Part shown: positions 12,188 to 62,369 of the stretch, one piece after another
Layout of the letters: the number at the start of each line of letters is the position of its first letter
Numbering within the stretch: the first letter of the stretch is position 1
Origin: Eubacteriales bacterium
Lineage (GTDB): Bacteria > Bacillota > Clostridia > Oscillospirales > CAG-272
Reading direction: 5' to 3'
Length of the DNA stretch: 64,000 nucleotides
Assembly: GCA_045659405.1 (NCBI GenBank)
Contig: JAZOWX010000033.1
Coordinates: forward strand, 4,205-68,204
Notes under the pieces: model-generated
Databases searched by the model: none
What the model saw: only the letters and a program-made list of their open reading frames with translations
Told to the model about the DNA's origin: nothing
Position numbers and translations under genes: made by a program

Positions 12188-12210
12188 AATCTTTCTCCTC
12201 TATCTATCTC

Positions 12211-13461
12211 TTATTTTATTTTTTCATCAACGTAGACGGCATTGCCGTTGTATACGGTAAGCAGACATTTTCCGAAAAGCCGCTCTCCGCTAAAGGGGGT
12301 TGCGTGTCCCATAGAAAGGAATTCTTTGGGATTTACCGTGAATTCTTCATTCGGGTCAAATACCGTGAAGCCTCTGTCGGTATTTATAGAAAATCTTTCT
12401 CTCGGACGCTCGCACATCAGCTCTATAAGCTTTTGTGGTGTGAGTATTCCCGTCCTTACGAATTTTGTATACATAGCCGCAAATGCGGTTTCAAGACCTA
12501 CAACACCCATAGGCGACTTTTCAAGTCCCCTCGACTTTTCCTCGTCCGAGTGCGGTGCGTGGTCGGTTGCTATCATATCAATCGTGCCGTCAAGCACACC
12601 CTCGATAAGCGCTTTTTTGTCCTCACGGGAGCGCAGGGGCGGATTCATCTTGAAGCGTGCGTCCTCTTGTAGGTTGCTGTCATCGTAAATCAGGTAGTGC
12701 GGCCCTGTCTCGCAGGTGATATCCACACCCTCACGCTTTGCTTTTCTGATAAGCTCGACGCTTTCCTTTGTCGAAACGTGGCAGACGTGGTATGAAGCTC
12801 CGCTTTTTTTGAGAAGCTCAATATCCCGTTTAATCGGCCCCCACTCGGATTCCGAGCAGATTCCTCGGTGTCCGTGCGCTCTCGCATACTCACCGTCGTG
12901 AATATAACCGCCGAAAAGCAGAGCGTTGTCCTCGCAGTGCGCCGCTATAATCTTGCCGAGCGACTTTGCCCGCTTCATTGCCTCAAGCATCATATCCTCG
13001 CTTTGCACTCCGCGTCCGTCGTCCGAAAAGCCGACAACACAGTCGCTCATACCCTCAAGGTCGGCAAGCTCCTCTCCAAGCTCTCTTTTTGTAATTGCGC
13101 CAAAGGGGAGCACAGCGATTTTTGCATCTGAATTTATTATATCAAGCTGAAGCTTCAGATTTTCCGGTGAGTCGGGCACGGGATTCAGGTTTGGCATAGT
13201 GCAAACCGCAGTATATCCGCCGTGCGCCGCAGCCATAGAGCCACAGCTTACCGTTTCTTTATAAGAAAAACCCGGCTCTCTGAAATGCACGTGCACATCA
13301 CAGAAACCGGGAAAAATAAATACTCCGTCTATAACGTTATCAAAGGAAGAAATACAAACGTCAGAAGCAACACGGGAAAGAGTAGTGCCGTCAAAGGAAA
13401 AATCAGCTTTTGTAAGCTTGGAATTTTCATATATCGCAGCGTTTGTGAAAAGTGTTTTCAT
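12211..13461 (-). CDS. pyrC: dihydroorotase
   Basis: DVHVHFREPG metal-binding motif, a later ...HVCHVS..., and ATDHAPH. Confidence 0.9.
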   Translation of the reverse strand: MKTLFTNAAIYENSKLTKADFSFDGTTLSRVASDVCISSFDNVIDGVFIFPGFCDVHVHFREPGFSYKETVSCGSMAAAHGGYTAVCTMPNLNPVPDSPENLKLQLDIINSDAKIAVLPFGAITKRELGEELADLEGMSDCVVGFSDDGRGVQSEDMMLEAMKRAKSLGKIIAAHCEDNALLFGGYIHDGEYARAHGHRGICSESEWGPIKRDIELLKKSGASYHVCHVSTKESVELIRKAKREGVDITCETGPHYLIYDDSNLQEDARFKMNPPLRSREDKKALIEGVLDGTIDMIATDHAPHSDEEKSRGLEKSPMGVVGLETAFAAMYTKFVRTGILTPQKLIELMCERPRERFSINTDRGFTVFDPNEEFTVNPKEFLSMGHATPFSGERLFGKCLLTVYNGNAVYVDEKIK

Positions 13462-18110: not shown

Positions 18111-18139
18111 TTGTCAAACCAAAATATATGTGTTATAAT
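18111..18139 (+). promoter_or_regulatory. sigma-A promoter (TTGTCA-17 nt-TATAAT with TGn extension) ahead of the mutS-like/giant-gene cluster
   Basis: Hexamers at 18111-18116 and 18134-18139, with TGT at 18131-18133. Confidence 0.55.
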
Positions 18140-18200: not shown

Positions 18201-19823
18201 ATGCAAGAGAAATTTATCAGCCTTTTATATCCCGACGAGTCATCACAGATGTTCCATTCGGACAGACGCAATCTGCCGAATATATCCGAGCAGGTTTGTG
18301 ACGAGCTGGGGCTTAATGAAATATTCGATCTGAAAAACAGCGAGCTTTCGGATTTCTTTACCGCCGACCCCGACGTTATTGCATACCGTCAAGCGGTGAT
18401 TTCGGATATGATGAATATACCCGAGCTTAAGGAAATGCTCGGCAGAGTTCAGCCGATACTTGACGATATACTTGAGCTTCAGCGCCTTGAGGCGGACAGC
18501 TCTTCGGCGGGTGACTCTTATCTTTACAGCATAACCGAGATTGAGCTTTACGTTTCCTGCATAGATGCCTTGCACGACGGATTTGCGAAAATTGCTGACA
18601 GACTTGCGAGTCCTGCATTCCGTCAGCTCTCCGACTACATTTCCGAGCTTTCGGACTCGGAGTATTACCGAGAGCTTGTAAAGCGGTTGGCGGCGCTTTC
18701 CTCACGTGTCAGAGAGGTGCGCAGTATTACCGTGGGTGTAAATCTTGACAGAGAGCTTCGTCCTGAAAGTGCCGGTGTTATCTCGATAAATTCCGAGCAG
18801 TTCAAGTCGGGAAAGATGCTTGACAAAATACTCCGTATGTCCTTTAAGAACGATGCATATACCTGCATTGCGGATCTTACACCGTTTGGTAAGGGGCAGA
18901 GTGAAAACAGGCAGGAGGCGCTTATCGGCGCATTCAACTCGGCTATTGAGGACGTGTTTAAAAGCTCGGTGCGAGGTTGGCGCTCGATAGTGGGTGATTA
19001 CGTCCTTGACAATACCGACTTTCTTCTTAAGCTTGCGCCGGAAATTGAGTTTGTAAGCCGTGCTGTGGAGCTTTTACACCGTCTTACCGACGTTAAAGGC
19101 GAGAAAATAACCGTGCCGATTACAGCACCTATCGGGGAAAAAGCATTTTCGGCAAAGGGAATTTACAATCCCCGTGTGGCGCTTGCGGTTGATGATGCTA
19201 TGGTGCTTAATGACGTTGAGTTCGACGACGATGCGAGGATATACGTTATAACAGGCCCTAACCGAGGCGGAAAATCGGTTATAACAGTGGCTGTCGGAGC
19301 GGCGCAGGCTATGTATCAGCTCGGACTTCCGGTTGCGGCAGAATCCGCAAGAATATCTGCGGTTGACGGAATCTTTACGCATTTCCCCGAGGGCGCTGAC
19401 GACACGATTGATAAGGGACGACTCGGTGAGGAATGTGCGCGTCTTGGAGAAATATTCGCAGATGCATCGGGCGACAGTATGATACTGCTCGACGAGTCGC
19501 TTTCGTCAACCGGTGCTTACGAGGCATCGTATATAGCTTCCGAGATACTTACGGGATTTGCGGTGCTTGGCTGTCGCGGAATATTTTCCACTCACCTGCA
19601 CGAGCTTGCGGCAAACATTCCCGATATCAACGCTCGCTCGAGGGAAATGGGCGGTGTTATGACAGACACGCTTGTTGCGGGTATCGAGGAGGGGGAGCGC
19701 TCGTTCAAAATTTACAGAGCGAAGCCCGACGGTAAGTCGTATGCCCGTGATATTGCCAACAAATACGGTCTTTCGTTTGAGAGCATAATGAAAAGTAAAA
19801 ACATAGGGAGGGATAAGTCGTGA
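18201..19823 (+). CDS. MutS-related ATPase (MutS domain V only, no mismatch-binding domain)
   Basis: Walker A ITGPNRGGKS, Walker B MILLDESLSSTG and STHLHEL motifs in the C-terminal half. The N-terminal ~300 aa is not recognisable. Confidence 0.8.
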   Translation: MQEKFISLLYPDESSQMFHSDRRNLPNISEQVCDELGLNEIFDLKNSELSDFFTADPDVIAYRQAVISDMMNIPELKEMLGRVQPILDDILELQRLEADSSSAGDSYLYSITEIELYVSCIDALHDGFAKIADRLASPAFRQLSDYISELSDSEYYRELVKRLAALSSRVREVRSITVGVNLDRELRPESAGVISINSEQFKSGKMLDKILRMSFKNDAYTCIADLTPFGKGQSENRQEALIGAFNSAIEDVFKSSVRGWRSIVGDYVLDNTDFLLKLAPEIEFVSRAVELLHRLTDVKGEKITVPITAPIGEKAFSAKGIYNPRVALAVDDAMVLNDVEFDDDARIYVITGPNRGGKSVITVAVGAAQAMYQLGLPVAAESARISAVDGIFTHFPEGADDTIDKGRLGEECARLGEIFADASGDSMILLDESLSSTGAYEASYIASEILTGFAVLGCRGIFSTHLHELAANIPDINARSREMGGVMTDTLVAGIEEGERSFKIYRAKPDGKSYARDIANKYGLSFESIMKSKNIGRDKS

Positions 19824-20680
19824 GTATGGTTATAGGAATAGACGTCGGCGGCTCGACAACTAAAATCGTCGGCATAAGACAGACCGATAACGCCACGTCG
19901 CTTATCGAGCCTCAATTTGTTCGTGCAAACGACCCGATGACGTCAACCTACGGCGCTTTCGGAAAGTTTACGGACGAAAACAGAATACAGATATCCGACG
20001 TGGACAGAGTTATGATGACCGGTGTGGGTTCATCTCATATAAAGCGAAATCTTTACGGCCTTGAATGCCGTAAGGTGGAGGAATTCCAAGCTATTGGCAG
20101 GGGCGGCCTCTATCTTTCGGGACTGGATGATGCGATAGTCGTCAGCATGGGCACGGGAACTGCCATAGTCCATGCAAAATCAGGCGGACGTATGACCTAT
20201 CTCGGCGGTACGGGCGTAGGCGGCGGAACGCTTATGGGACTTTCAAAGCTTATGCTTTCGGCTGAAAGTGTTGAGCATATAGAGGAATATGCGGATACAG
20301 GCTCGCTTGCAAACGTGGACCTGCGCATAAAGGATATAACTGCCGATTCGAAAAGCACGGGACTCAATGCCGAGCTTACGGCTTCGAATTTCGGAAACGT
20401 TTCGGATATAGCCACCAAGGGCGATATAGCTCTCGGAATTCTCAATATGGTTTACGAAACGATAGCGATGACGTCAATATTTGCCGCTCGCTCACGTGGG
20501 GTGCGTGATATCGTGCTTACGGGAAACCTCACGATAATCGGTTATTGCCGAAAGAAATTCGAGGAATTCAATCACCTTGGCTACGGTGTGAATTTTGTAA
20601 TACCGAAGCTTGCTCAATTTGCTACTGCGATTGGTACGGCGCTTGTCGGCTTGGATGAGAGCTCGGAGGAGTCCGTATGA
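19820..20680 (+). CDS. coaW: type II pantothenate kinase-like ASKHA-fold kinase
   Basis: GIDVGGSTTKIV, MGTGTA, GGTGVGGGTLMGL, ELTASNFG and ATAIGTAL line up with the S. aureus CoaW motifs as I remember them. The GTG start overlaps the upstream stop (GTGA). Confidence 0.7.
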   Translation: MSMVIGIDVGGSTTKIVGIRQTDNATSLIEPQFVRANDPMTSTYGAFGKFTDENRIQISDVDRVMMTGVGSSHIKRNLYGLECRKVEEFQAIGRGGLYLSGLDDAIVVSMGTGTAIVHAKSGGRMTYLGGTGVGGGTLMGLSKLMLSAESVEHIEEYADTGSLANVDLRIKDITADSKSTGLNAELTASNFGNVSDIATKGDIALGILNMVYETIAMTSIFAARSRGVRDIVLTGNLTIIGYCRKKFEEFNHLGYGVNFVIPKLAQFATAIGTALVGLDESSEESV

Positions 20681-21102
20681 ACATACTTCGATTTATGATA
20701 CCGAAGAGCTTGGTTTCGTACGTGGAAGTTGATAATACGGTAAGGCAGGCGCTTGAGAAAATGCGCTTTCACAGATATGCGGCGATACCCGTGCTTGATA
20801 AGTCGGGAAAATACGTCGGAACTCTGCGAAACGACGACCTTTTTGAATACTTTTTAGACAGCGGAAATTTCAATTCCCGATCTGCGGAGAGGGATGAGGT
20901 TTCATTGATACTGCAGTCCGGATATAAGCCCGTGCATCATAATGCAACGATGAATGAGCTTATAGAAAACGTCAAGGAGCATAATTTTGTTCCGGTTGTT
21001 GACGATCGGGGCTGCTTCATAGGAATAATTTTACGACGGGATATTCTGAATTTCCTTTTGAGCAATTACAAAGAAAATCAGGGGTCCGATTTAGGGGGAT
21101 AA
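20677..21102 (+). CDS. CBS domain pair protein
   Basis: Two CBS-like units (AIPVLDKSGKYVGTL / FVPVVDDRGCFIGII). ATGA overlap with coaW and a GGAGGAG RBS. Confidence 0.8.
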   Translation: MNILRFMIPKSLVSYVEVDNTVRQALEKMRFHRYAAIPVLDKSGKYVGTLRNDDLFEYFLDSGNFNSRSAERDEVSLILQSGYKPVHHNATMNELIENVKEHNFVPVVDDRGCFIGIILRRDILNFLLSNYKENQGSDLGG

Positions 21103-21108
21103 AAATCG

Positions 21109-24100
21109 ATGTCAGATTTGACTAACATCAACGAAAACGAAGCCGTTAATGTCGGTGGGGCTTCGGAAAACAAGGAGCAGGGTGCGGCTGCGGATGCGGC
21201 GCAGCTTGCGTACCTTGTTTACGCAAGAAAATACAGAAAGAAGCTGCAGGCGGAAAAGCGAAAGGCGGCAAAAGCGGCGGCAGAGGCCAAGGAAGCTGAA
21301 GCTGCAGAAGCAGCGGCGGAAGAAGCTTCCACCGAGATGCCCGAATCTGCGTCCGCTGTGGAAAACGAGCTGCCCGTAGCAGAGGCTGCGCCCGAACAGC
21401 AGTCGGAGCAGATGCCAAAGCCGCAGGATGAGGAAGCTCTCGCTGACGGTCAAGCACAGCAGGCGGCAGAGGATAATCAGGAAGCTGCCGAAGATGCGGC
21501 AGAGCCTGAAAAAACCGACAATGACAATAACGTAGAGGACGAGCGCAAATCTGATGCGTCCGTATCCGAGGCTACACCTACCGAAGCAGAGGCAGAGCCT
21601 GAAGCAGAAGCTGCGCCCGAAACGGAAACTGCGCCCGAGACGTCTGAAACCGAGAATTCTTCCCCTGATTTCTCGGATGATTCGGATATGGTCATCAAGG
21701 TGGACAGCGAGCCGCAGAAGAAGAAAAATACACTTGACGGCATTGATATGGATCTCAACATTGGCGAACCCGAAGAGCCGGAAGAGCCCCAAAATGAGAA
21801 GAATACACTTGACGGTGTTGATATGGATCTCAATATGGGAGAGCTTGCATCTGCTCCCACCCCCGGACAGATGCCGAGAAATCCCGATGACGGTATGACG
21901 ATTCGCATTGATGAGCAGATAAAGGAAAACGAAAATCTTATTAATATAAGCGCAAGAGTTTATCCCGAAGCGGCATTCGATTCTCTTATGAGAGAAAAAG
22001 CCGCTATCACCAAGATGATAGACGACCATTACAATGCTTATGCTGATGAAATGGAGCGCCTCAGAAAGAAGCATATGTTCCTTCGCATGGATGCAACCGC
22101 AAGAGCGGCTGCAGAGCGCAGCGAGGAATTCAAGCTTCTTCAGCAAGAGGAGGAGCGTTACAACCGTGAGGTTAAGGATCTTGAACGCCGCCGTGACGAG
22201 GCTGCGAAGACATATCTTGACCGCAAGGCCGACCTTGAGCGCATCATAGATGAATTTGATGCAAAGAAGCGTGATATGGATACCCTTGCCGGTGCAGCGC
22301 AGAGAATAGCTGCCGGCGCGGCGGACGTTACTTCCGCAATCGCAAACGGACTTGCGCAGAGCGGATTTGACAGCAATGCCGCAAGAGCAGAGGCGGCTGT
22401 TGCCAATGCCAACCTCGAAAAGGAGCGTGCTGTTGCCGCAGCAGTCCTTGAAAAGGAAAAGGCACTTGCAGATGCAAGGCTTGAAGCCGAAAAGAGAGCT
22501 GCTGCCGAAGCAAGGCTTGAAGCTGAAAAGAAAGCTGCTGCCGAAGCAAGACTTGCGGCTGAAAAGAAAGCCGCCGAGGCAAAGCCCGAAGCCGCACGTG
22601 CCTCTGACGAAAAGGCAAAAGAGCCTGCCGTTAAGACAGCGCCTATGGATACAAAGGGTCAAGGACTCGAGGCTGCCGAGCCCGAAAAGAGCAAGCCTGC
22701 GGGTCACGTAGTAGTGCCGGGTGCTATCGACAAGGCGCGTGATGATGCACAGCTTCAGAAAAAGCTTGCCGAGCGCTTAAGCGAGCCTAAACGTATAGAA
22801 GTAGAGCCGAAGGACCTTCCTGCGTATATCGCATCTGCGGAAAAGGATCTTTCCAAGCTTGATAAAGAATACAAAAAACTTGAAAACGCAGCGCCTAAAA
22901 CCGAGGCGGAGCGTATAGAAAACGCAGTAGACCGTCTTGGTGTAAGGCGTCGTGCGGTTGAGCGAATGACGGATAAGCTTCTCGCTTGCAGAGCCGCAGG
23001 CGCACCCACGTCTGTGTGCGAAAAGCACAGAGACGAGCTTGGCTCGGCTGTCGCACGCTATAATGCGGACGTTGACGGGTACAAAGCTCTTACAGGTCAC
23101 GAGCTTACCCGTGCCGAGTCTGATATGGCAGAGCGTGTTTTGCGTGGAGAGCCTTATCAGCAGTTGCCCGTCATAAAGTCTCGTAACGAGGTGGTTTCAA
23201 AGGAGGACGGCAAGCCTGTTGAGGATGCCGCACCTGCGGATATAGAGAATGCACCGCTTAAGGTAGATACTGTTGTAGATAACAGACGTCAGCGCAGCGC
23301 TGATGCTGAAGATAGAGTGAGCGAGCGCACACCTGATGAAGGCTACGCAAAGGAGCAGGGTGAAGACCGTCTGCCCCAGGGCGAGTATGCCGACGTCTCG
23401 GGCGCAAAGAAAAAGCCGAGTGCGCTTGACGGACTTTCCAAGCGTGAGATACGCAGAAGAATGAATGCCGAGAAGGCGGCTCTTCGTGAGCAGTCGCTCG
23501 AGCTTGCCGAGTCTGCAAAGAAAAATGCCGCAAAATCCAAGGAGGCTGCAAAGCTTGCCAAGCATGGCAGCAAAGAAGAACGCCAAAAGAACAAAGAGGA
23601 AGCGATTGAGTATGCTAAACGCAGTGCGGCAGACGAAGCGCTTTCCAAGGAAAAGGCACAGACCGAAAAGTCTTTGAAGACACTCAAGGATTACGAGAAA
23701 TACCTGCTTGACCGTGAGGCGTTGGATGCTGTCGCAGAGCCTGATACCTCGGCTTACGACAAGGCGCTCGAAGCTCGCAAGGCTGATGAAGAAAGGGTTC
23801 TTCGTGAGCTTGAAAGAGAAGATCAGGATCTCGAGAGCCTTGCACGTACCGACGAGCTTGATGAGGCTGTTGCCGAGGAGGATGCGGAGCTTCAGCGTCA
23901 GCTTTCCGAATACCGTAATGAGCAGATAAAAAGAGCAGACGTTGATCTTGCCGGCTTATCTTCATATCTTGAATCGACTCAAAAGGATCTTGATGAGCTT
24001 GATAAGCAGTATAAGGAGCTTGAGGCGCAGGAGCCGGCAAATGATGCCGAGCGCATAGAAAATGCCGTAGCTCGACTTGGCGTAAAGCGCGGTGTTGTTG

Positions 24101-27100
24101 AAAAAATGACAGATAAGCTCCTTGCTTGTAAGGGAGCGGGTGCGCCGAGCGCTGTTTGCGAAAAGCACAAAAACGAGCTTAACGATTCTGCGGAGCAGTA
24201 CAATTCAATAGTTGACGAGTACAAGGCTCTGACAGGTCACGACCTCACACGTGCAAAGACCGATATGGCAGACCGTATTCTTCGTGGCGAGGAGTATCAG
24301 CTGCTGCCTGTTGTCAAGTCGCGCCATGAGGTGCTCTCGACAGAAGACGGACAGCCGGTTGATAACGTTTTGTCCTCCGATGCCGAAGGTGCGCCTATAA
24401 AGATAGATACCGTCGTTGACGGAAAGCATCAGCTTACCGAAGAGGTCGAGCCGAACAAGGAAGACGGCACAGGAAAAGACGCAACCGTTATTATGACGGA
24501 AAAGGAAATTCCCGCCTTCTTCAAAAAGCAGAAACAAAAAGAGGAAAAGCTTCGTGAGCGTGACAGCGTTCTTGCAACGCTTAATCCGGATAATACCGAG
24601 GATAGAATAGCTGTTATCGTTGAGCGTCTGGGAACACAGCGTGAGCTTGTAGACAGTCTTTCAAAGGATATGAAGCTTGCTGTAAAGACGGGTGATAAAA
24701 AGAAAACACGCTCCTACAAAAAGCAGCTTACCTCTCACATAAATCAATATAATAATCTCGCCGATGAATATGAACGCATTACGGGCAACTCGCTCACACG
24801 TGCGGACAAAAACATTCCGGGTTACATAATGAGGGGCGAGAAATATAAGCCTATTCCCGTATTGACCTACCGCAAGGAAGCGCCCGACGGAACTCTGCTT
24901 TCGGATAGTCTCGGAGCAGGCACGACCTGCGGCGCTGCGTATTCGCTTATTCCCGAAAGACAAAGACGTGAGCTTGAAAAGCGCGGTGTCATAGAAAAGA
25001 AGAAGGCAACCTCCATAGAGGGACTTTCAAAGAAGGAAGCAAGAGAGCGTTTGAAGGCGGAGAAGGCCGCTCTTCACGAGGAGTATCTCGCTCTTGCCGA
25101 ATCAGCGAAGAAAAATGCCGCAAAATCTGCCGAGGCTGAAAAGCTTGCAAAGAAGGGCAGTAAGGAAGAGCGTGAAGCTCACCTGGCAGAGGCTGCCGAG
25201 TACGCTAATCGCAGTGCAACCGAGGAAGCGCTCGCAAGGCAGAAGGCACAGACAGAAAAAGACTTGAGAACGCTCAAGGATTACGAAAATTATCTGATTG
25301 AGCGTGAAAAGGCTGCAGAGCTTTCCCGAGCACGTGAGGAAGAATATCGGGCAGCTCTCAGCGCAGTACAAAAAGAGCCTACCGAGGAAATGCTCGAATA
25401 CGAGCGCTTTAGAAAGCTCGACAAAAAACAAAAGCGCGAAAAGCTTAAAGAAGAGAAGAAAAAGCTCTTCGAGGCGGCGCGTGATGACGAAGACAAAGCA
25501 AAGCTTGTCGCACAGCAGGCAAAGGAAGAAAGAAAGCTTGCAAAGCGCGGAACACGTGAAGAGCGTGCAGAGCACAGAGCAGAGGCTGATAAGCTTGAAG
25601 CGAAAGCAAAGCAGGCGAGCGAGGATGCAAAAAATGCCAAGGAAACGGCAATAGCGCTCAAAAACGAAAAGGATTATGAGCGTTACCTCAAGGGACGTGC
25701 AGAGCGCGCGGAAATCCGCCGCCGTGAAGAAGAGGTAGCAAAGAGCGCAAGAGAAAAAGCACCCGAAACGCTTGATGAGCAAGAAATCGCAGAGCAGACC
25801 GAAAAGAGCGATGCTCTTATCTCGCAGGCTGATACCGAGGAAATCGTTCATTCGAAGATTGACGATGAAGAAGCAGCTCCGAGCGGTGAAGCTGCGGAAG
25901 AGTCGGCTTATTCAAGAGATTCCGCTGATGAGGCTTTGAGTAGTGAAGCTTCAAGCGATGCGGCACAGGCAGCAGTTGAAAGCTTCAGACAGCTTTCTGC
26001 GCAAGAGCAGGAGCAACAGATTGACGAGGATAAAAAGCTCCTTCTTGAGGAAGCTCGTGTAAACGAGGAAAAGGCAAGCCTTGCCGAGGAGCAGGCCCAG
26101 AAGGAAAGAGAGCTTTCAAAGAGCGGAACTCCCGCAGAGCGTGATGCGCACAAGGCAGAGGCAGAAAGACTGCTTAACAAGAGCGCAGAGTATAGCCTTG
26201 CCGCACAGAGGAGCGCAGCGCTTGCTGATGAAATTTCATCCACCGAGGCTTACGAAAGCTATCTTTCAGGGGTTGCATCGGGTGACGGTCAAATCAGACC
26301 TTACGGTATGTCAAATGATGAAGCCTACGAGACTATGGAAGCCGCAAAACGGCAGATAGGCTCTACCGACAAGGCGCTTGCAAGAGCAGAGCTTGAGGAG
26401 TTTATGAGTCTTTCCGCTAAAGAAAAGCGGGACGTAGTAGAGCAGAAGAAGCGCGCACTTCTCGAAGAGGCTCAAAATAATAAGGAAAAGGCGGAGCTTA
26501 TTTCCGAGCAGGCAAAGGAAGAAAGAAAGCTTTCAAAGAGCGGAACACGCACCGAGCGCACCGCACATAGAGCAGAGGCTGAAAGACTTGATAAGATTGC
26601 AGAAGACGCTCGTGAAAAAGCAAAAGCGGCAAAAGCGGCAGCTAAATCCTTCAAAAACAAGAACGACTATCAGGAATACCTGCAAATGCGTGCGCAGATA
26701 GAGGAATCCTTGTTCAAGAAGAATGAGGAAGCCTTCGACGCAAAAGTAAAATCAATTACCCCCGCAGCATATTACGGCGAATCCGAGCTTGATGAGTTCA
26801 AAAATCTCTCTCGCAGAGAAAAGAGAGAAAAAATCAAGAGCGAGAAGCTTGCGCTGCTTGAGGGAGTACGTGCAAACGAAGAACGGGCAAGGCTTGCGCT
26901 TGAGCGTGAAAGAGAAGAAAGAAAGCTCGCAAGACGCGGTACACGTGCCGAGCGTGCAGAGCATGCAGCGGAGGCTGAAAGACTTCGCAAGATAGCCGAG
27001 GATGCCGAGGAAAAAGCAAGAATAGCAAAGCGTGAAGCAAGGTTGCTCAAAGAAGAGGGCGACTACGTTGATTATTTGACAAGACGTGATGCGATTACTG

Positions 27101-30100
27101 AAAGCTTCGACGAGGAAGACTCTGTTAAGAGCGTGTCGGGCGAGACCGCAGAAATATCTTCGACTGACGAGGCGGTAGACGTTGCGGATGCGGCAGCAGC
27201 TGCGCCTGCAGAAGCATCAACCTCACAAACCGACACCGAAGAAGCAATTTCGGAAAAAGCACACGAGACAGAGCTTGAAAAATTCAGAAAGCTCACAGAA
27301 GATGAGCAGCTGGAAAGAATCAACGAGGCAAGAATTCGTCTTCTTGAGGAAGCACGTGCCAATGACGAAAATGCCAGAATGGCAGAGGACGCTGCGAGAA
27401 GAGAATACAGACTTTCACAGCAGGTAGCGCCCGAGGAGCGTGATTTCCACAGAGCTGAAGCGGACAGACTTGTACGCAGAAGCGAAGAATTCCAGAAGGC
27501 AGCGGAGCTTGGTATAAAGACCGTAAAAGAGCTTGACAGCCGCAGTGCTTATGAAAAACACCTGACTGCCAAACTCGCAAAGGATACCGATGAGGACGGT
27601 CAGATTAAGCCTTACGGCATGACCGATAAGGAAGCTTACGAGAGCATGCTTTCCGCAAAGCGTTATGCGGCTAATTCTACCGATAGGGCGCTTGCAAAGG
27701 CAGAGCTTGAGGAATTCAGCAAGCTTTCGCTCAGCGAAAAACGTGCGAAAATCGAAGAAGAAAAGCTTGCGCTTCTGAAAGAAGCACGTGAGAATGCGGA
27801 AAAGGCAAAGCTCGCAGCAGAAAAGGCAAAGGAAGAAAAGAAGCTTGCCAAGCGAGGAAGCCGTGCAGAGCGTGCCGAGCATGAGGCAAATGCTGAAAGA
27901 CTTGAAAAGAGTGCGGATAACGCTAATGAAAGCGCAAAGACCGCAAGGCAGACTGCGGCACTTCTGAAGAGCCAGGAGGATTACAAGAATTACCTGGCAA
28001 TGCGTGCGCAGGTCGAGAAATTCATTCAGGAAAGCGAAGTAGCAAAGAGCGCAAGGCGCGACGCTGAAATCGTTTCTGCAATTGAAAATACAGAGCTTGG
28101 TAAATTCAGACGTCTTTCCGCACAGGCAAAGAAGGAAAGAATCAAAGAAGAAAGACTTGCTCTGCTTGAGGATGCTCGTGAAATCGAGAAGCAGGCAAGA
28201 ATTGCAAAAGAGGAAGCTGCGATAGAAGCAAGGCTTTCGAGGCTCGGAACAGACGAGGAGCGTGTAGCACACGAGGCAAGAGCAGATGTCCTTTCGAAGG
28301 AAAGTGATGAAAACAGCAAAATTGCCGAGTCGATAGTACAGACCGCAAAGGAAATAGGCGATATAACCGCCTATGAGAAATACCTCGCACTAAAAGAAGA
28401 AAAAGCGTTGGCTTCCGCAAAGCAGCGCAACGCAAGACGCAGAGATTTAAGCACTCTTGACGGACTTTCGGAGCGTGAGAAGAAGGCTCGTCTTATAGAG
28501 GAGCGCAATTTGCTTCTCAATGAGGCTGAAGCGTACGATGCCGAAGCGAAGATAAGCAAAGAAAACGCCAAGGCGGCGAAGTCTTCTGCGAGAAACGACA
28601 GATACCGTGAAAGAAGTGAAACGAGAGCCGAGCTTAAAGCGCTTTCGAAGCTTGCGGCAGAGCAGAAGCTTCAGGCTAAAGAAGCAAGAATAGCGGCAAA
28701 ATCGCTAAGGAGCGTAGCCGATTATGAAAAATACCTTGCTTCGGGTGCGGCGGCTAAAGCTGCGGCATACAAGAAGCCTGTCGGAGCCAATGCGGATTCT
28801 GCGATCAAGACCTACGGCTTGACCGATAAGGAAGCCTATGAAAGCATGGTTGCCGTCAAACGTATGGAGGCGGCTTCATCCGACAAGGTGCTTGCAAGAG
28901 CAGAGCTTGAGGACTTCAGAAAGCTTTCCACAAAAGAAAAGAAAGCAAAGATTAAGCAAGAAAAGGCTGCTCTTCTTGAGCAGGCGCGCGAGAGCGAGGC
29001 TGAAGCAAATCTTGCCGCTGTAAGGGCTAAAGAGGAAAAGAAGCTTGCAAAACGCGGAATGCGCGCAGAGCGTGCCGCGCACAAGGAAAAGGCTGATAAG
29101 CTTTCGCTGCGCAGCGTAGAGCTTGGACAGACTGCAAAGCAGCGCGCAAAGACTGCCAAGGAAATTAACAGTATATACGCTTACGAGAAGTATCTTGAAA
29201 ACAAGGTAGCTTCCATTCCTGCGTCTGAAGAAAAGCCGACCTCAAAGAGCTATAATAACGGACTCTCGCCGCTTGAGATGCAAAGGACTCTTAACGATGC
29301 GGCCATGGCAGAGCAAAGCATCTCGCAGATAACTGCACTCGATGAGTTTAATGCGCTCCCCGAGCGAGAGAAAAAGGCGAAAATTGCCGAGGAGCGTAAG
29401 CTTCTTCGTGACGTTGCCGACTCTCTTGATGCAGAGTCAAAGGCAAACAAGACGAGCGTAAGACAGACTAAGGCGCTCTCAAGACGTGATTTGTACATAG
29501 GCATTGAGGATTCGTTCAACGAATCCAAGCTGTTTGCGAAGCGCAGAGCAGAGCAGAAGCACCAGGCAAAGGAAGCAAGAAAGGCTGCAAGATCTCTTAA
29601 AACCGTAAATGATTACGAAAAGCATCTTGCTAAAGCAGAGCTTGCTGCAATTCACGAGGAAGAAAAAACACGTAAGGCTTTGGCTCACGAGATAAGTCTG
29701 CTCACAAACGTGCAGCCTGTAAGAGCTCGCAGTGCAGAGCCGTCTTATGAGGCGTACGACAGATATCTTGAAAAGCTTGAGATGGCTAAGGCTTACTCCA
29801 AAGAAGCAGAGCTTTCCGAGCGTCAAAAGAATGCTGCCGAGCAGACGCTCGCAAAGACAGAGCTTGAAAAGTTCAGAGCTCTTTCCCCGAAGAAACAGAA
29901 GGAAAGAATCAGAGAAGAGAAGCTTGAGCTGCTTGCACAGGCTCGTGAAAACGAGGAGCAGGCAAAGCTCAATGCCAAGATGGCAAACGAGGAAAGAAAG
30001 CTTGCAAAGCGTGGAAGCCGCGCGGAGCGTGTTAAGCACAAGTCCGAGGCTAACAAGCTTTCACGCAGAAGCGAAGAGTATGATATCGCTGCCAAGAATG

Positions 30101-32394
30101 CGGAAAAAACCGCAAAAGAGCTTAACAGCATAGAGTCATACGAAAGATATCTTGCCGCAAAGGAGCTTCTTGCACAGCCCGGAAAAGAAGTTAAGTCTTA
30201 CGACTCGTCGGCTTATGACAGAGGTGTTGCTGTAAGAGAGTTCTCGAAGCAGAATGCCAAGGGGGCAGAGCCGTCACATCAGGCTTATGACAGACATCTT
30301 GAAAAGCGTGAGATGGCAAAGGCTTATCTCGAGGATAGCAAAGCACCCGTAAAGGCACAGCCCTCGGTTGAGCCCGAGCGCACACCCGAGCCCTCATACA
30401 GCGAGTATGAAAGACATCTTGCAAACCGTGAGATGATGGACTTTGCAAAAGACGCTGACTTCGGTAAAAAAGCTGCAAAAGAAAAGAGCGGCCTGATGTC
30501 GCTTGACGGACTTTCGAAGCAGGAGAAAATGCTGTTGGTTGCACAGGAGCGCACAGAGCTTCTTAACGCTGCATACTCTCTTGAAGCAGAGTCAAAATCC
30601 AACCAGGCTAATGCCGAGGTGGCAAAGGCTCGCTCGAAGAGCGGACCGCGCCGCACAAGAGCCGAGGCAAAGGCTGAAGCGCAAGAGCTTTCGGCGCTCA
30701 GTAAGGCGCAGAGCCGTCAGGCTAAAATAGCCAAAAAGACCGCTAAATCTCTCAAAAACGTAAGCTCGTATGAAAAATACCTTGCTACAAAAGAGCTTTT
30801 GACAAACTCGCAAAAGACAAAGGATGACTCTTTCGCTACTTCGGCTTATGACAGAAGCCTTATGGAAAAAGAGCTTTCTGCAATGGGTGCCAAAAGGTCG
30901 GAATCATCCTATGACGAGTACGAAAGACATCTTGCGAAAAAAGAGCTTTTGAGTGCAAATGCGTACAGACCCGAGCCAACGTACGACGAGTATGACAGAC
31001 ATCTTGAAAAGCGTGAAATGCTTCAGGTTGCCAAAGACCCGACGCTCAGCGGCACATATTCTGCAAGTCAAAAACCTCTTGCAGGACGCACCAAGCGTCA
31101 GCTTCGTTCGGAAGCAAAGCGCAGAAGTGCGGAATGTGAGCTTGAGGCTAAACGTCTTTTGAAGGAGTCAAAGGATGCGGATAAGCTTGCAAAAGAGGAG
31201 CGTAAGCAAGCCAAAAGAGCAAAGCGTGCCCAAAAGCCGTACCACTTAAGTCAGGCTGAAGCGTATGAAGCCCACAGCCTTGAATTGAAGGCGTTGGCCG
31301 AGGCCGCAACACTTGAGGCGGCGGAGCTTAAGGATTTGCACACTCTCGCTGAGTTTGAAAAATACAATGCAAACAAGGAAGCCCTCGCTTTTGCGGCATC
31401 CCGTGATCAGTATGAGGCAAAGCCCCGTGCAGGTAAAGCGGATTTTGCGGATGCAGACCGTCATATAAAGCACGACCGTGCCGCAATAAACAAATTCTGC
31501 CGTGAGCAATCCGATTATGACGAGACAATGATATTGCGCCGTTATGAGACAAAGCTTGCGACAGCGTATTCGGAAATGCAGATAAAGAAGCTTCATTTCG
31601 GTGAAAAGAACCGTAAGTACAAGAAAAAGTACGACGCTCTTTGCAAGGAGCGTGCAATGGTAGAGGCTCATATTCCGAAGGCGATGAAGGCTGAAAAGCG
31701 TGACAACGAGCGTTATTATGCAGTAGTAAAGAGCGATATCAATAAGATGAAGCTTCCGAAGCACGCCAATAAAGAGGCGCTTACAGAGCTTCAAATAGAG
31801 ATTGAAACTCTGCTTCGTGAGCGTGATGCTGTAAACCGTGAGCTTATTGCGCTTTACAATAGCTCAAAAACTGCGGACGACACCAAGAATAACACCTTTG
31901 AACGTCTTAAAACAGCGAGAAAGGGCGCAAAGTCTGCGTACAACAAGCAAAGAAAGCTTGCTAACGAAATAGACGCTTTGCATATACCTCTTGACGAAAA
32001 GAAGAAAATCTATGACCCGATGAACCGTATAACGCAGCTTAATGCCGAGATAAACGAGCTTATATACCGCATCGAGCGTGAAAAGCTCAAGGGACGTGCA
32101 AAGAATGCGGCTATATCGAGCATCAAAAAGAAAAAGAGCGAGCGTGCGCACCTTGAGCGTGTTGTAAAGGCTCTTTCGAAAAAGGCGAAGAAAAAGGCTT
32201 ACCGTGAGCGTGAGGAAAGAAAGCTTCAGCTGTTCTGGATAGTAATTCTTCTTATCGTTGTAGCAGCAGGAATTGCGGCTTGGTATTTCCGTGCGGATAT
32301 AATGAGTTATATAAAAAGCTTTGCTAAAGCTACCATTCCCGAATCCGTACTGACGGTTTTGAGTTCTGTATTTGGAGGTGCTATAAATGGCTGA
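21109..32394 (+). CDS. giant (3,761 aa) tail-anchored, highly charged coiled-coil repeat protein of unknown function
   Basis: A single stop-free frame of 11,286 nt, with an AGGGGGA RBS 9 nt upstream of the ATG. In-frame repeat families are diverged yet keep the frame. A C-terminal hydrophobic helix lies at 32224-32289. No signal peptide. Confidence 0.85.
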   Translation: MSDLTNINENEAVNVGGASENKEQGAAADAAQLAYLVYARKYRKKLQAEKRKAAKAAAEAKEAEAAEAAAEEASTEMPESASAVENELPVAEAAPEQQSEQMPKPQDEEALADGQAQQAAEDNQEAAEDAAEPEKTDNDNNVEDERKSDASVSEATPTEAEAEPEAEAAPETETAPETSETENSSPDFSDDSDMVIKVDSEPQKKKNTLDGIDMDLNIGEPEEPEEPQNEKNTLDGVDMDLNMGELASAPTPGQMPRNPDDGMTIRIDEQIKENENLINISARVYPEAAFDSLMREKAAITKMIDDHYNAYADEMERLRKKHMFLRMDATARAAAERSEEFKLLQQEEERYNREVKDLERRRDEAAKTYLDRKADLERIIDEFDAKKRDMDTLAGAAQRIAAGAADVTSAIANGLAQSGFDSNAARAEAAVANANLEKERAVAAAVLEKEKALADARLEAEKRAAAEARLEAEKKAAAEARLAAEKKAAEAKPEAARASDEKAKEPAVKTAPMDTKGQGLEAAEPEKSKPAGHVVVPGAIDKARDDAQLQKKLAERLSEPKRIEVEPKDLPAYIASAEKDLSKLDKEYKKLENAAPKTEAERIENAVDRLGVRRRAVERMTDKLLACRAAGAPTSVCEKHRDELGSAVARYNADVDGYKALTGHELTRAESDMAERVLRGEPYQQLPVIKSRNEVVSKEDGKPVEDAAPADIENAPLKVDTVVDNRRQRSADAEDRVSERTPDEGYAKEQGEDRLPQGEYADVSGAKKKPSALDGLSKREIRRRMNAEKAALREQSLELAESAKKNAAKSKEAAKLAKHGSKEERQKNKEEAIEYAKRSAADEALSKEKAQTEKSLKTLKDYEKYLLDREALDAVAEPDTSAYDKALEARKADEERVLRELEREDQDLESLARTDELDEAVAEEDAELQRQLSEYRNEQIKRADVDLAGLSSYLESTQKDLDELDKQYKELEAQEPANDAERIENAVARLGVKRGVVEKMTDKLLACKGAGAPSAVCEKHKNELNDSAEQYNSIVDEYKALTGHDLTRAKTDMADRILRGEEYQLLPVVKSRHEVLSTEDGQPVDNVLSSDAEGAPIKIDTVVDGKHQLTEEVEPNKEDGTGKDATVIMTEKEIPAFFKKQKQKEEKLRERDSVLATLNPDNTEDRIAVIVERLGTQRELVDSLSKDMKLAVKTGDKKKTRSYKKQLTSHINQYNNLADEYERITGNSLTRADKNIPGYIMRGEKYKPIPVLTYRKEAPDGTLLSDSLGAGTTCGAAYSLIPERQRRELEKRGVIEKKKATSIEGLSKKEARERLKAEKAALHEEYLALAESAKKNAAKSAEAEKLAKKGSKEEREAHLAEAAEYANRSATEEALARQKAQTEKDLRTLKDYENYLIEREKAAELSRAREEEYRAALSAVQKEPTEEMLEYERFRKLDKKQKREKLKEEKKKLFEAARDDEDKAKLVAQQAKEERKLAKRGTREERAEHRAEADKLEAKAKQASEDAKNAKETAIALKNEKDYERYLKGRAERAEIRRREEEVAKSAREKAPETLDEQEIAEQTEKSDALISQADTEEIVHSKIDDEEAAPSGEAAEESAYSRDSADEALSSEASSDAAQAAVESFRQLSAQEQEQQIDEDKKLLLEEARVNEEKASLAEEQAQKERELSKSGTPAERDAHKAEAERLLNKSAEYSLAAQRSAALADEISSTEAYESYLSGVASGDGQIRPYGMSNDEAYETMEAAKRQIGSTDKALARAELEEFMSLSAKEKRDVVEQKKRALLEEAQNNKEKAELISEQAKEERKLSKSGTRTERTAHRAEAERLDKIAEDAREKAKAAKAAAKSFKNKNDYQEYLQMRAQIEESLFKKNEEAFDAKVKSITPAAYYGESELDEFKNLSRREKREKIKSEKLALLEGVRANEERARLALEREREERKLARRGTRAERAEHAAEAERLRKIAEDAEEKARIAKREARLLKEEGDYVDYLTRRDAITESFDEEDSVKSVSGETAEISSTDEAVDVADAAAAAPAEASTSQTDTEEAISEKAHETELEKFRKLTEDEQLERINEARIRLLEEARANDENARMAEDAARREYRLSQQVAPEERDFHRAEADRLVRRSEEFQKAAELGIKTVKELDSRSAYEKHLTAKLAKDTDEDGQIKPYGMTDKEAYESMLSAKRYAANSTDRALAKAELEEFSKLSLSEKRAKIEEEKLALLKEARENAEKAKLAAEKAKEEKKLAKRGSRAERAEHEANAERLEKSADNANESAKTARQTAALLKSQEDYKNYLAMRAQVEKFIQESEVAKSARRDAEIVSAIENTELGKFRRLSAQAKKERIKEERLALLEDAREIEKQARIAKEEAAIEARLSRLGTDEERVAHEARADVLSKESDENSKIAESIVQTAKEIGDITAYEKYLALKEEKALASAKQRNARRRDLSTLDGLSEREKKARLIEERNLLLNEAEAYDAEAKISKENAKAAKSSARNDRYRERSETRAELKALSKLAAEQKLQAKEARIAAKSLRSVADYEKYLASGAAAKAAAYKKPVGANADSAIKTYGLTDKEAYESMVAVKRMEAASSDKVLARAELEDFRKLSTKEKKAKIKQEKAALLEQARESEAEANLAAVRAKEEKKLAKRGMRAERAAHKEKADKLSLRSVELGQTAKQRAKTAKEINSIYAYEKYLENKVASIPASEEKPTSKSYNNGLSPLEMQRTLNDAAMAEQSISQITALDEFNALPEREKKAKIAEERKLLRDVADSLDAESKANKTSVRQTKALSRRDLYIGIEDSFNESKLFAKRRAEQKHQAKEARKAARSLKTVNDYEKHLAKAELAAIHEEEKTRKALAHEISLLTNVQPVRARSAEPSYEAYDRYLEKLEMAKAYSKEAELSERQKNAAEQTLAKTELEKFRALSPKKQKERIREEKLELLAQARENEEQAKLNAKMANEERKLAKRGSRAERVKHKSEANKLSRRSEEYDIAAKNAEKTAKELNSIESYERYLAAKELLAQPGKEVKSYDSSAYDRGVAVREFSKQNAKGAEPSHQAYDRHLEKREMAKAYLEDSKAPVKAQPSVEPERTPEPSYSEYERHLANREMMDFAKDADFGKKAAKEKSGLMSLDGLSKQEKMLLVAQERTELLNAAYSLEAESKSNQANAEVAKARSKSGPRRTRAEAKAEAQELSALSKAQSRQAKIAKKTAKSLKNVSSYEKYLATKELLTNSQKTKDDSFATSAYDRSLMEKELSAMGAKRSESSYDEYERHLAKKELLSANAYRPEPTYDEYDRHLEKREMLQVAKDPTLSGTYSASQKPLAGRTKRQLRSEAKRRSAECELEAKRLLKESKDADKLAKEERKQAKRAKRAQKPYHLSQAEAYEAHSLELKALAEAATLEAAELKDLHTLAEFEKYNANKEALAFAASRDQYEAKPRAGKADFADADRHIKHDRAAINKFCREQSDYDETMILRRYETKLATAYSEMQIKKLHFGEKNRKYKKKYDALCKERAMVEAHIPKAMKAEKRDNERYYAVVKSDINKMKLPKHANKEALTELQIEIETLLRERDAVNRELIALYNSSKTADDTKNNTFERLKTARKGAKSAYNKQRKLANEIDALHIPLDEKKKIYDPMNRITQLNAEINELIYRIEREKLKGRAKNAAISSIKKKKSERAHLERVVKALSKKAKKKAYREREERKLQLFWIVILLIVVAAGIAAWYFRADIMSYIKSFAKATIPESVLTVLSSVFGGAING
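22813..24897 (+). repeat. three copies of a ~130-160-aa module (copies 22813-23289, 23944-24426, 24505-24897) within the giant ORF
   Basis: Copies 1 and 2 share ERIENAV.RLGV.R..VE.MTDKLLAC..AGAP..VCEKH..EL...YN..VD.YKALTGH.LTRA..DMA.R.LRGE.YQ.LPV.KSR.EV. Copy 3 is divergent and lacks the Cys pair. Confidence 0.7.
23425..31368 (+). repeat. array of 14 (+1 degenerate) copies of an exactly 94-aa / 282-nt module separated by variable linkers, within the giant ORF
   Basis: Module boundaries ([FL]-x-x-L-S ... [DAS]-Y-E-x-[YH]-L) are at 23425-23706, 25015-25296, 25408-25689, 25984-26265, 26401-26682, 26797-27078, 27283-27564, 27715-27996, 28105-28386, 28456-28737, 28915-29196, 29347-29628, 29872-30153 and 30502-30783, plus a degenerate copy at 31087-31368. 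All are in frame with the ATG at 21109. Confidence 0.85.
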
Positions 32395-32608
32395 TTACAG
32401 ACAGGGACGTAATCCTATCGGAGCAATGTCTGCCGAGCAGCGTGCTGCCGCTATTGAAAAAGCAGAAATTCAAAGAATCCGCATCGTTGAATTGCTGGAG
32501 GAAAGAATGCAGGATTTCGCAAGACTCAGCGGTAAAAAATCGCTCGGTAAGCGTAAATACCGCATCGGAAAAGCTCCAAATGATTGGAAAAAGAAAAATA
32601 AGCTTTAA
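32387..32608 (+). CDS. small basic hypothetical protein (73 aa), translationally coupled to the giant ORF
   Basis: The ATG at 32387 overlaps the giant-ORF stop (ATGGCTGA). A GGAGGTG RBS lies 8 nt upstream. The product has a K/R-rich C-terminus. Confidence 0.55.
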   Translation: MADYRQGRNPIGAMSAEQRAAAIEKAEIQRIRIVELLEERMQDFARLSGKKSLGKRKYRIGKAPNDWKKKNKL

Positions 32609-32634: not shown

Positions 32635-32662
32635 TTGATTTTTTCAAAAATTATGTTATAAT
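32635..32662 (+). promoter_or_regulatory. sigma-A promoter of the rimP-nusA-infB operon (TTGATT-16 nt-TATAAT with TGn extension)
   Basis: Hexamers at 32635-32640 and 32657-32662, with TG at 32654-32655. Confidence 0.6.
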
Positions 32663-62159: not shown

Positions 62160-62320
62160 GGCAAAAAAATCTACCGTACAGGACGAATGTCTGTACGGTA
62201 GATTTGAGCGAAAAACGCTGCTTATCCTATCTCCCTACGACGGCATTATCCGTATCAGGTTAAAGGGTTTGGCGAAAAAGCCATCTCAGCCGTATTGCAA
62301 AAAGCAAAGCACCCCTGACA
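62160..62320 (-). promoter_or_regulatory. TPP (THI-box) riboswitch with intrinsic-terminator expression platform
   Basis: The minus strand reads CAGGGGTGC...CTGAGA...ACCCTTTAACCTGATACGGATAATGCCGTCGTAGGGA, the THI-element core. It is followed by the hairpin ATCTACCGTACAG/CTGTACGGTAGAT (62203..62169) and TTTTTTT. Confidence 0.85.
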
Positions 62321-62369
62321 TATATTCTGTTCGGTAGCCGATGCTGTGTTGATTTGCATCGACAGGTCT

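Follow-up and report, generated by a model that had tools for sequence, protein, structure and literature searches.

To our knowledge the giant proteins described from bacteria are nearly all secreted adhesins, toxins or synthetases, and the known tail-anchored proteins of bacteria are small to medium-sized. Here we analyze a gene encoding a protein of 3,761 amino acids, lying within a 64,000-nucleotide stretch of a contig of an Eubacteriales bacterium (JAZOWX010000033.1; the whole stretch is termed the window), whose product would be at once giant, helical and tail-anchored. Its closest described counterparts come from several quarters. EzrA is a membrane-anchored arch of five triple-helical bundles, each of ~100 amino acids, linked by continuous connecting helices, and the authors of its structure called it the sole known bacterial protein made of serial spectrin-like repeats (PMC4243239). 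The nesprins are giant tail-anchored KASH proteins, in which a helical-bundle rod is followed by a C-terminal transmembrane (TM) helix and then, across the membrane, by a short conserved peptide (PMC3296292). Ebh and Embp are giant surface proteins of staphylococci, with rods built from helical bundles of ~120 amino acids, a secretion signal and a C-terminal TM helix (PMC6548404, PMC7587433). The tail-anchored proteins of bacteria lack an N-terminal signal and have a single TM helix at the extreme C-terminus, implying that they are inserted post-translationally (PMC6794478).

The giant protein has something in common with each of these. EzrA, a division regulator of Firmicutes known as the 'bacterial spectrin', is cytoplasmic, held by a single TM anchor, and consists of antiparallel bundles of ~100 amino acids arranged head to tail, and a comparable build of serial helical units is predicted here. 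As in EzrA, spectrin and alpha-actinin, the serial units are 100–120 amino acids long, with 116 in one repeat (module A) and ~100 in another (R1). However, EzrA is anchored at its N-terminus and the giant protein at its C-terminus, and EzrA has five repeats (~560 amino acids) where the giant protein has ~18 recognizable units in 3,761. There is no sequence similarity or significant structural similarity between the two, and no match to the Pfam entry for EzrA. The nesprins have the same overall layout, but this is an architectural analogy only; they are eukaryotic proteins with true spectrin repeats, a SUN-binding KASH peptide and an N-terminal actin-binding domain, none of which was detected in the giant protein. 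Giant size, a rod of helical-bundle repeats and a TM helix near the C-terminus are shared with Ebh and Embp, but the family to which the giant protein belongs lacks the signal peptide and has the opposite pattern of charge around the TM helix. Finally, the protein resembles the bacterial tail-anchored class in having a single terminal TM helix and no signal sequence, but its predicted cytoplasmic passenger, in a protein of 3,761 amino acids, is far beyond the usual size.

An unnamed family with a fixed architecture

To find the family, 1.84 billion cluster representatives were scanned exhaustively with HMMER, amino acids 590–1789 of the giant protein serving as the query. This matched 57 representatives, which have a common architecture and, where the flanking genes could be compared, the same operon. 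An initial reading of this DNA, made without database searches and termed here the sequence-only reading, had seen no recognizable family. That is correct as far as named families are concerned, as neither the whole protein nor its parts gave a match in Pfam, NCBIfam, PHROGs, PADLOC or the sequences of the PDB, and PDB profile searches with module A, R1 and the membrane-proximal domain (the C-domain) returned noise or designed coiled coils at E ~0.01. The protein nonetheless has relatives, as the 57 representatives show. The only source name that we have seen on any of them is 'hypothetical protein [Clostridia bacterium]', in keeping with the earlier view that the protein is uncharacterized.

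The repeats were defined by chunked self-BLAST and iterated hidden Markov models (HMMs). Besides R1 and module A there are three shorter types of repeat in the giant protein, in agreement with the three or more in-frame repeat families noted from the letters. Profile–profile comparison using hhalign revealed no mutual relationship between module A, R1 and the C-domain.

The members of the family follow one plan. A motif of the type YAxxYRKKL, carried by an N-terminal helix, was seen in 21 of the 34 full-length members and in each case close to the N-terminus. A low-complexity stretch comes next, which varies between members and is often acidic. Module A (~116 amino acids) occurs 180 times in the family, with between one and eight copies per member, and there are three in the giant protein; each copy closes with a conserved loop. 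The C-domain, probably helical, comprises ~250 amino acids, or a block of ~275 with the TM helix, and is found in 48 of the 57 representatives, the giant protein included. The sequence-only reading had described this segment simply as a non-repetitive basic region; it is in fact the most conserved domain of the family. A hydrophobic helix lies within the last ~50 amino acids of 45 of the 57 representatives, and none has one at the N-terminus. The tail that follows the TM helix is 5–37 amino acids long, with a median of 17. The giant protein has all these elements in the same order (Table 1). Taken together, there is strong support for its membership of an unnamed family with three new modules, a fixed architecture and a fixed operon.

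R1 is a different matter. This ~100-amino acid repeat is present in 15 copies between amino acids 772 and 3419, and is limited to the giant protein and a handful of close relatives, among them those termed P0002 and P0004 in the public collection. In all other complete members only 40–60 amino acids separate the last module A from the C-domain, whereas in the giant protein an R1 array of ~2,150 amino acids stands between them. The N-terminal part is also restricted in distribution: the acidic region rich in E, A, P and T is confined, apart from the giant protein, to its closest relatives (P0002 and P0003), and the helical region at amino acids 291–574 is common only to P0002, P0003 and P0004. 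Complete genes of the family encode between 963 and 3,761 amino acids, about a fourfold range in which the giant gene is the longest seen, and typical members have 1,000–2,000. Species in which the MutS-like protein encoded upstream is 92% and 90% identical to that of the window have versions of 2,369 and 2,382 amino acids. As R1 is confined to close relatives and the other complete members are shorter, there is strong support for the view that gigantism is not a trait of the family, but a recent expansion of R1 from ~2,370 to ~3,760 amino acids in one lineage. Close species provide a natural series of lengths, of 963, 1,296, 1,474, 1,752, 2,369, 3,711 and 3,761 amino acids. This whole family, with its fixed operon and its three new domains, has yet to receive a name, though it is common in metagenomes from the guts of ruminants and humans.

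The giant gene is intact

The uninterrupted frame of 11,286 nucleotides and the ribosome-binding site in front of it were both reproduced where the sequence-only reading had placed them. The CBS gene upstream ends with a TAA stop codon placed between that site and the ATG of the giant gene. At the ~48% GC of this DNA a stop would be expected at about one codon in 21, so that 3,761 codons free of stops rule out a chance origin. The product is identical to the public-collection protein P0001, encoded on an NCBI contig of 92,627 bp. It contains 16.2% A, 14.6% E, 11.3% K and 7.9% R, with D, E, K and R together making up 39.6%, and has a net charge of −47, eight cysteine and two tryptophan residues. 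The first 200 amino acids carry a net charge of −37, as befits the acidic N-terminal region noted at the outset.

A sister species in an independent ENA assembly (ERZ27317293, contig k141_420255) has an orthologous gene of 3,711 amino acids at the matching position, and its identity to the window is 96% for the MutS-like protein, 92% for pantothenate kinase (PanK) and 96% for the CBS protein. Over the 2,906 codons read from its start this orthologue has no stops, and is colinear with the giant gene and 75% identical, with small insertions and deletions only. Comparison with the 2,382-amino acid orthologue, calculated region by region for four separate regions, gave pN = 0.20–0.29, pS = 0.60–0.74 and dN/dS = 0.11–0.22, where dS is near saturation and the ratios are therefore rough. 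The copies of the repeats within the giant gene are just 60–89% identical in DNA sequence, which makes collapse or chimerism of the assembly unlikely. These comparisons argue strongly for a gene that is intact and under purifying selection.

Long antisense ORFs (open reading frames of up to 531 amino acids, for example at 21112–22707 on the minus strand) lie opposite the giant gene within 21109–32394. We read them as by-products, since the coding strand is rich in purines (AT skew up to 0.37; GAA, AAA and GCA codons) and the antisense frames are consequently poor in stops.

Membrane topology

The sole hydrophobic window of the giant protein spans amino acids 3702–3733, and contains the helix 34 residues before the stop codon that the sequence-only reading had picked out. 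The highest Kyte–Doolittle mean over nine residues within the first 70 amino acids is 1.23, indicating that there is no N-terminal signal peptide, and judged by hydrophobicity none of the full-length family members inspected has one. The giant protein has no LPXTG motif (searched as LP.T[GAS]), as had been noted, nor a YSIRK or twin-arginine motif, and the residues that follow its TM helix do not form a basic tail. Across the family, the 15 residues before the TM helix contain a mean of 3.9 K + R (net charge +2.1), against 1.0 (net charge −0.1) in the 15 after it, and the excess lies before the helix in 41 of 45 members.

The predicted C-terminal TM anchor is strongly supported. The asymmetry of charge, the very short tail and the lack of a signal peptide together point to a tail-anchored layout with a cytoplasmic passenger, so that the bulk of the protein would lie within the cytoplasm. 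The sequence-only reading had placed the protein in the cytoplasm, tethered by its tail. The tether and the tail-anchored layout are borne out by these data, while the side of the membrane on which the bulk of the protein lies is a prediction.

The foremost alternative places the repeats on the other side. The protein would then be a surface giant of the Ebh and Embp type with its repeats outside the cell, retained by the TM helix after export by an unrecognized route. Ebh too is a giant string of bundles of ~120 amino acids, with a C-terminal TM helix and a cytoplasmic anchor (PMC6548404, PMC7587433). Exposure at the cell surface would be in keeping with a giant protein that diverges far faster than its neighbors (28% identity compared with 84% for NusA) and with rapid change in repeat number, as lengths of 2,369, 2,382, 3,711 and 3,761 amino acids are found where the MutS-like proteins are 90–96% identical; the hosts, moreover, inhabit animal guts. 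Yet the signal peptide and the motifs of export and wall anchoring are lacking, the basic residues precede the TM helix, whereas in an Ebh-type anchor they follow it, and export of 3,700 amino acids, 40% of them charged, with no signal is implausible. Furthermore, Ebh and Embp carry FIVAR, GA and DUF1542 domains. None of these was matched in Pfam up to E = 1 by the whole giant protein or its parts, and there is no wall-binding Pfam domain. We therefore consider a surface location unlikely.

Predicted folds of the repeats and length of the rod

Our descriptions of fold are taken from the secondary-structure strings and confidence values of AlphaFold2 models. Copy 2 of module A, modeled with 55 aligned copies from the family, gave pLDDT = 91.6 and pTM = 0.81. 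Helices are formed by residues 2–19, 25–55 and 60–88 of the module, beyond which a loop leads to a short helix and then to an extended tail. Tyr77 and Asn78, which belong to the third helix, are nearly invariant, as are Ile103, Gly106 and Pro113, which fall within the short helix and the tail. R1 unit 8 together with its linkers (amino acids 2154–2330), modeled with 28 aligned copies, gave pLDDT = 89.3 and pTM = 0.70. Here the helices comprise residues 20–51, 55–96, 99–132 and 136–176, with lengths of 32, 42, 34 and 41 residues. Those of 42 and 34 residues form a hairpin at a conserved K-x-G turn, and the flanking helices extend into the adjacent units. A single alpha-helix of the ER/K type was considered for R1 and rejected, as the K-x-G turn falls in the middle of the unit and the model, at this pTM, folds back as a hairpin.

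Comparison of the module A model with the PDB using Foldseek gave a best E value of 0.53, and the highest TM-scores were those of designed three-helix bundles. Against a spectrin repeat of dystrophin (3uun_B) the values were E = 4.5, TM-score = 0.38 and RMSD = 11 Å. The best E value for R1 was 0.056, with no match to EzrA or spectrin in the PDB; its weak matches were with designed binders, ESCRT-III, Vipp1/PspA, F-BAR proteins and chemoreceptors, at TM-scores of 0.35–0.43 and RMSD ~20 Å. Nothing better was found for R1 among the viral models of BFVD, where tape-measure proteins matched with E = 0.6–0.7 and TM-scores of 0.18–0.35. None of these Foldseek comparisons reached an E value under 0.02. 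Thus neither the profile searches of Pfam and the PDB nor Foldseek with the module models identified a significant relative.

The models strongly support repeats that are built as helical bundles and hairpins, and from this we infer that the molecule is likely to be rod-like. A spectrin repeat is ~5 nm in length (PMC4243239). Because the helices fold back on each other, each unit of 100–130 amino acids would likewise contribute ~5 nm, and ~24–26 such units would give a rod of ~100–130 nm, to which the disordered acidic stretch at the N-terminus would be added. The sequence-only reading had envisaged a span of hundreds of nanometers by assuming a continuous helix, with a rise of 0.15 nm for each of more than 3,000 residues. 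With bundles and hairpins of helices of 30–42 residues in the models, that figure appears to be a three- to fourfold overestimate.

A possible membrane-anchored scaffold

The interpretation that we prefer, and in which we place middling confidence, is that the giant protein is a cytoplasmic, tail-anchored rod of helical bundles that acts as a membrane-anchored spacer or scaffold. The C-terminal helix would be inserted post-translationally, fixing one end of the molecule in the membrane, and the serial helical bundles would form a semi-rigid rod of ~100 nm. The array of module A copies and the N-terminal motif could offer a series of binding sites whose distance from the membrane depends on the number of repeats, and the whole would work in the manner of EzrA, spectrin or nesprin. 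Such a role is suggested because both ends are conserved (the N-terminal motif at one, and the C-domain, TM helix and tail at the other) while the length of the intervening rod differs about fourfold among members. It is suggested too because the multivalent module A carries surface residues that do not vary, and because the design recurs in EzrA, the spectrins and the nesprins.

By analogy we might go further, and regard the protein as a bacterial counterpart of the nesprin and spectrin design, that is to say a spacer or membrane skeleton whose length is tuned by gain and loss of repeats (~960–3,760 amino acids), with the external tail coupling outward in a KASH-like manner. It would then be the second bacterial scaffold of serial helical bundles after EzrA, and by far the largest. 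This extension is tentative, and we consider it rather doubtful.

Several considerations weigh against the scaffold. The argument for the role is drawn wholly from architecture, and as neither module A nor R1 has a significant relative by Foldseek, 'spectrin-like' is a description and not a statement of homology. The models were read as secondary-structure strings and confidence values, so that any particular packing of the helices in R1, like a straight course of the rod, is presumed. The protein is rich in K and R throughout (19%), which weakens the positive-inside argument for the orientation of the TM helix. It also evolves much faster than its neighbors, as is more typical of proteins of the cell surface or of those involved in conflict. 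Moreover the hosts are uncultured, and helical repeat proteins give little purchase on function, and these things limit what can be said of the role. If the scaffold reading is right, a tail-anchored cytoplasmic rod of 400 kDa would be out of the ordinary among the cytoskeletal and scaffold proteins of bacteria.

The same rod might instead serve as a membrane-attached polyampholyte 'brush' with no specific partners, acting for example in exclusion of the nucleoid or ribosomes or in the buffering of ions, so that nothing but its bulk and its anchor would count. The high content of charged residues, the roughly fourfold variation in repeat content and length among complete genes, and the rapid divergence of the rod sequence would all be expected of a brush. 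Set against this, Y77, N78, I103, G106 and P113 of module A have no structural role and are nearly invariant across 55 diverged copies, the motifs of the N-terminus and the C-domain are kept at an overall identity of 25–30%, and dN/dS is 0.1–0.2 even in the repeat region. The conservation of module A and of the end motifs, together with the constraint on the repeat region, favors specific interactions, and a brush seems to us improbable.

A polymer that remodels membranes or responds to stress in the manner of ESCRT-III, PspA or Vipp1, proteins with long helical hairpins that polymerize on membranes, is very unlikely. It is prompted by the weak Foldseek matches of R1 with CHMP1B/IST1, Vipp1, PspA and Asgard ESCRT-IIIB (E = 0.25–2.2, TM-score = 0.37–0.43), but these are not significant and have RMSD values of ~20 Å, and designed coiled coils score as well or better. 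In addition, R1 is absent from most members of the family and therefore does not carry its core function, and there is no Pfam match to PspA/IM30 or Snf7.

Lastly, the idea that we are dealing with an assembly artifact, a decaying pseudogene, a chance ORF or the tape-measure protein of a prophage, which might be entertained for a repetitive and unannotated gene in a metagenome-type genome given that tape-measure proteins are long and helical, is effectively refuted by the colinear orthologue of an independent assembly, the divergence of the repeats in DNA, the purifying selection, a position in the operon among housekeeping genes that is kept in more than 25 loci, the poor viral fold matches, the lack of any match to PHROGs (0 families) or Pfam, and neighbors (MutS-like, PanK, CBS, rimP, nusA and infB) that are not tail genes, with no phage genes nearby. 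Several of the observations that the sequence-only reading had named as telling against itself did not appear, in that there is no match to a characterized family or to a tape-measure protein, no signal peptide, and no sign that the repeats have been collapsed or joined chimerically.

Distribution and rate of divergence

Loci were sought in the GTDB species collection with a degenerate DNA pattern for the C-domain motif LLxER[DE]x[VIL]NxxLxx[LIM]Y. This picked up the window together with six of seven loci already known, and there are at least 24 family loci in the collection, all in metagenome-assembled genomes (MAGs) of uncultured organisms. Among the matches listed, the MAGs are labeled Clostridia bacterium, Eubacteriales bacterium and uncultured Ruminococcus sp., with one Coriobacteriaceae, and their sources include the guts of yak, goat, roe deer and water deer. 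One of the MAGs has an 'HGM' isolate label, which we read as human gut from the label only. The family member filed under 'Coriobacteriaceae bacterium' (Actinomycetota) is at locus L027 (CAVEOF010000060.1), and is probably the result of a binning error. The pattern also matched one conserved gene in many genomes of Marinobacter, Halomonas and Vreelandella (the non-Clostridia loci, within L008–L126). These were rejected as members of the family, as HMM similarity to module A and the C-domain is absent from them, and we take the motif match to be coincidental.

Rates of divergence differ markedly along the locus. At locus L001 NusA is 99% identical to that of the window and the MutS-like protein 90%, against 73% for the small protein encoded just downstream of the giant gene, 70% for the C-domain and 56% for the rest of the giant protein. 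At more distant loci the corresponding values are 80–84% for NusA, 71–73% for the MutS-like protein and 67–71% for PanK, but 38–42% for the small protein and 27–33% for the C-domain. Going by these comparisons of sequence, the family as found here is confined to a single clade of uncultured gut Clostridia, and its members change several times faster than the neighboring genes.

The operon and its surroundings

The genes encoding the MutS-domain-V protein, PanK, the CBS protein, the giant protein and a small basic protein occur in this order at every related locus for which there is enough flanking sequence, and the MutS-domain-V gene is upstream of the giant gene wherever that flank is present. 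In the window, gene 2 overlaps gene 1 by 4 nucleotides, and gene 3 overlaps gene 2 by the same amount. The coordinates of the genes and of the parts of the giant protein are collected in Table 1.

Table 1. Features of the giant gene, its product and the adjacent operon in the window. Positions are nucleotides of the window; aa, amino acids of the encoded protein.
Feature	Position	Strand	Details
Sigma-70-like promoter	18111..18139	+	TTGTCA, 17-nt spacer, TATAAT, extended −10 TG; 11/12 consensus positions; consensus match only
Gene 1, 540-aa soluble MutS-domain-V-only ATPase	18201..19823	+	PF00488, E 1.8e-17
Gene 2, type II pantothenate kinase (ASKHA fold)	19820..20680	+	NF009842, 235.7 bits vs cut-off 234; Pfam Fumble, BcrAD_BadFG
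Gene 3, 141-aa CBS-pair protein	20677..21102	+	CbpB-like, below cut-off
Ribosome-binding site AGGGGGA	21093..21099	+	9 nt 5′ of giant-gene ATG
Giant ORF, 3,761 aa	21109..32394	+	11,286 nt, ATG start, one terminal stop
N-terminal motif YARKYRKKL (aa 38-46)	21220..21246	+	Family pattern [YFH][AV]..[YF]R[KRQ]KL
Acidic E/A/P/T-rich low-complexity region (aa ~55-290), probably disordered	21271..21978	+	Holds 25-aa duplicate KKNTLDGIDMDLNIGE (repeat family D15)
Helical N-terminal region (aa 291-574)	21979..22830	+	Includes 36-nt ARLEAEKKAAAE tandem (12-aa unit, ~3 copies)
Module A copy 1 (aa 579-695)	22843..23193	+	
R1 repeat copy 1 (aa 772-866)	23422..23706	+	
Module A copy 2 (aa 959-1075)	23983..24333	+	AlphaFold2 target; tail YN...TG..LT.A....P.DI..G..Y..LP
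Module A copy 3 (aa 1132-1258)	24502..24882	+	Nearest family consensus of the three
R1 copies 2-15 (aa 1302-3419), linkers 19-112 aa	25012..31365	+	Lineage-specific insertion, last module A to C-domain
Five short PSYxEYxRHLxKREM repeats (aa 2878-3304)	29740..31020	+	In late R1 linkers; repeat family D9
Membrane-proximal C-domain (aa 3458-3705)	31480..32223	+	Motifs E..DN.RYY, LL.ERD..N..L..LY
TM helix (aa 3706-3727), LQLFWIVILLIVVAAGIAAWYF	32224..32289	+	Single
34-aa tail after TM helix, predicted extracytoplasmic	32290..32391	+	Amphipathic F-[GR]-x-D-[ILM]...G, family-wide
Gene 5, 73-aa basic protein ending GKAPNDWKKKNKL	32387..32608	+	Overlaps last 8 nt of giant gene
Promoter-like site before rimP-nusA-ylxR-L7Ae-infB	32635..32662	+	

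The conserved ORF encoding the 73-amino acid basic protein had been overlooked in the sequence-only reading. A counterpart of 68–81 amino acids was seen 2–24 nucleotides beyond the giant gene at 16 of the 21 other loci compared. The protein has no match in Pfam, PHROGs or PADLOC. Its divergence keeps pace with that of the giant protein; in two relatives, the nearer given first, identities are 73 and 38% for the small protein, 70 and 28% for the C-domain, and 99 and 84% for NusA. On this account the small protein is the most likely candidate for a direct partner of the giant protein, and the parallel divergence is the only hint of it.

The MutS-like protein has no Smr domain and no TM helix, and scores far under the NCBIfam cut-offs for MutS and MutS2. 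Its relatives in the collection number more than 3,500, those with a name being called only 'hypothetical protein'; the best 120 are all at least 72% identical, and the host clade would thus be common in metagenomes. When the proteins of the operon were searched with PADLOC, the only match was one of 13.6 bits between the MutS-like protein and the P-loop protein LmuB, and there are no defense genes nearby. The gene for PanK, which is of the staphylococcal and eukaryotic type, sits between the MutS-like and CBS genes and is coupled to them in translation.

No terminator-like site was found on the plus strand between the 73-amino acid ORF and rimP. The rimP-nusA-ylxR-L7Ae-infB genes lie downstream in most loci, and are replaced by pyrimidine genes in L007. 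In the window, two ORFs of 1,057 and 416 amino acids on the minus strand at 9014–13461 match in length, order and strand the upstream genes of L127 and L129, which bear the annotations carbamoyl-phosphate synthase large subunit and dihydroorotase. From this match pyrimidine genes would lie upstream in the window, as against downstream in L007. Elsewhere, the only Rfam match in the window is a full-length TPP riboswitch (RF00059, 70.8 bits) at 62215–62326 on the minus strand.

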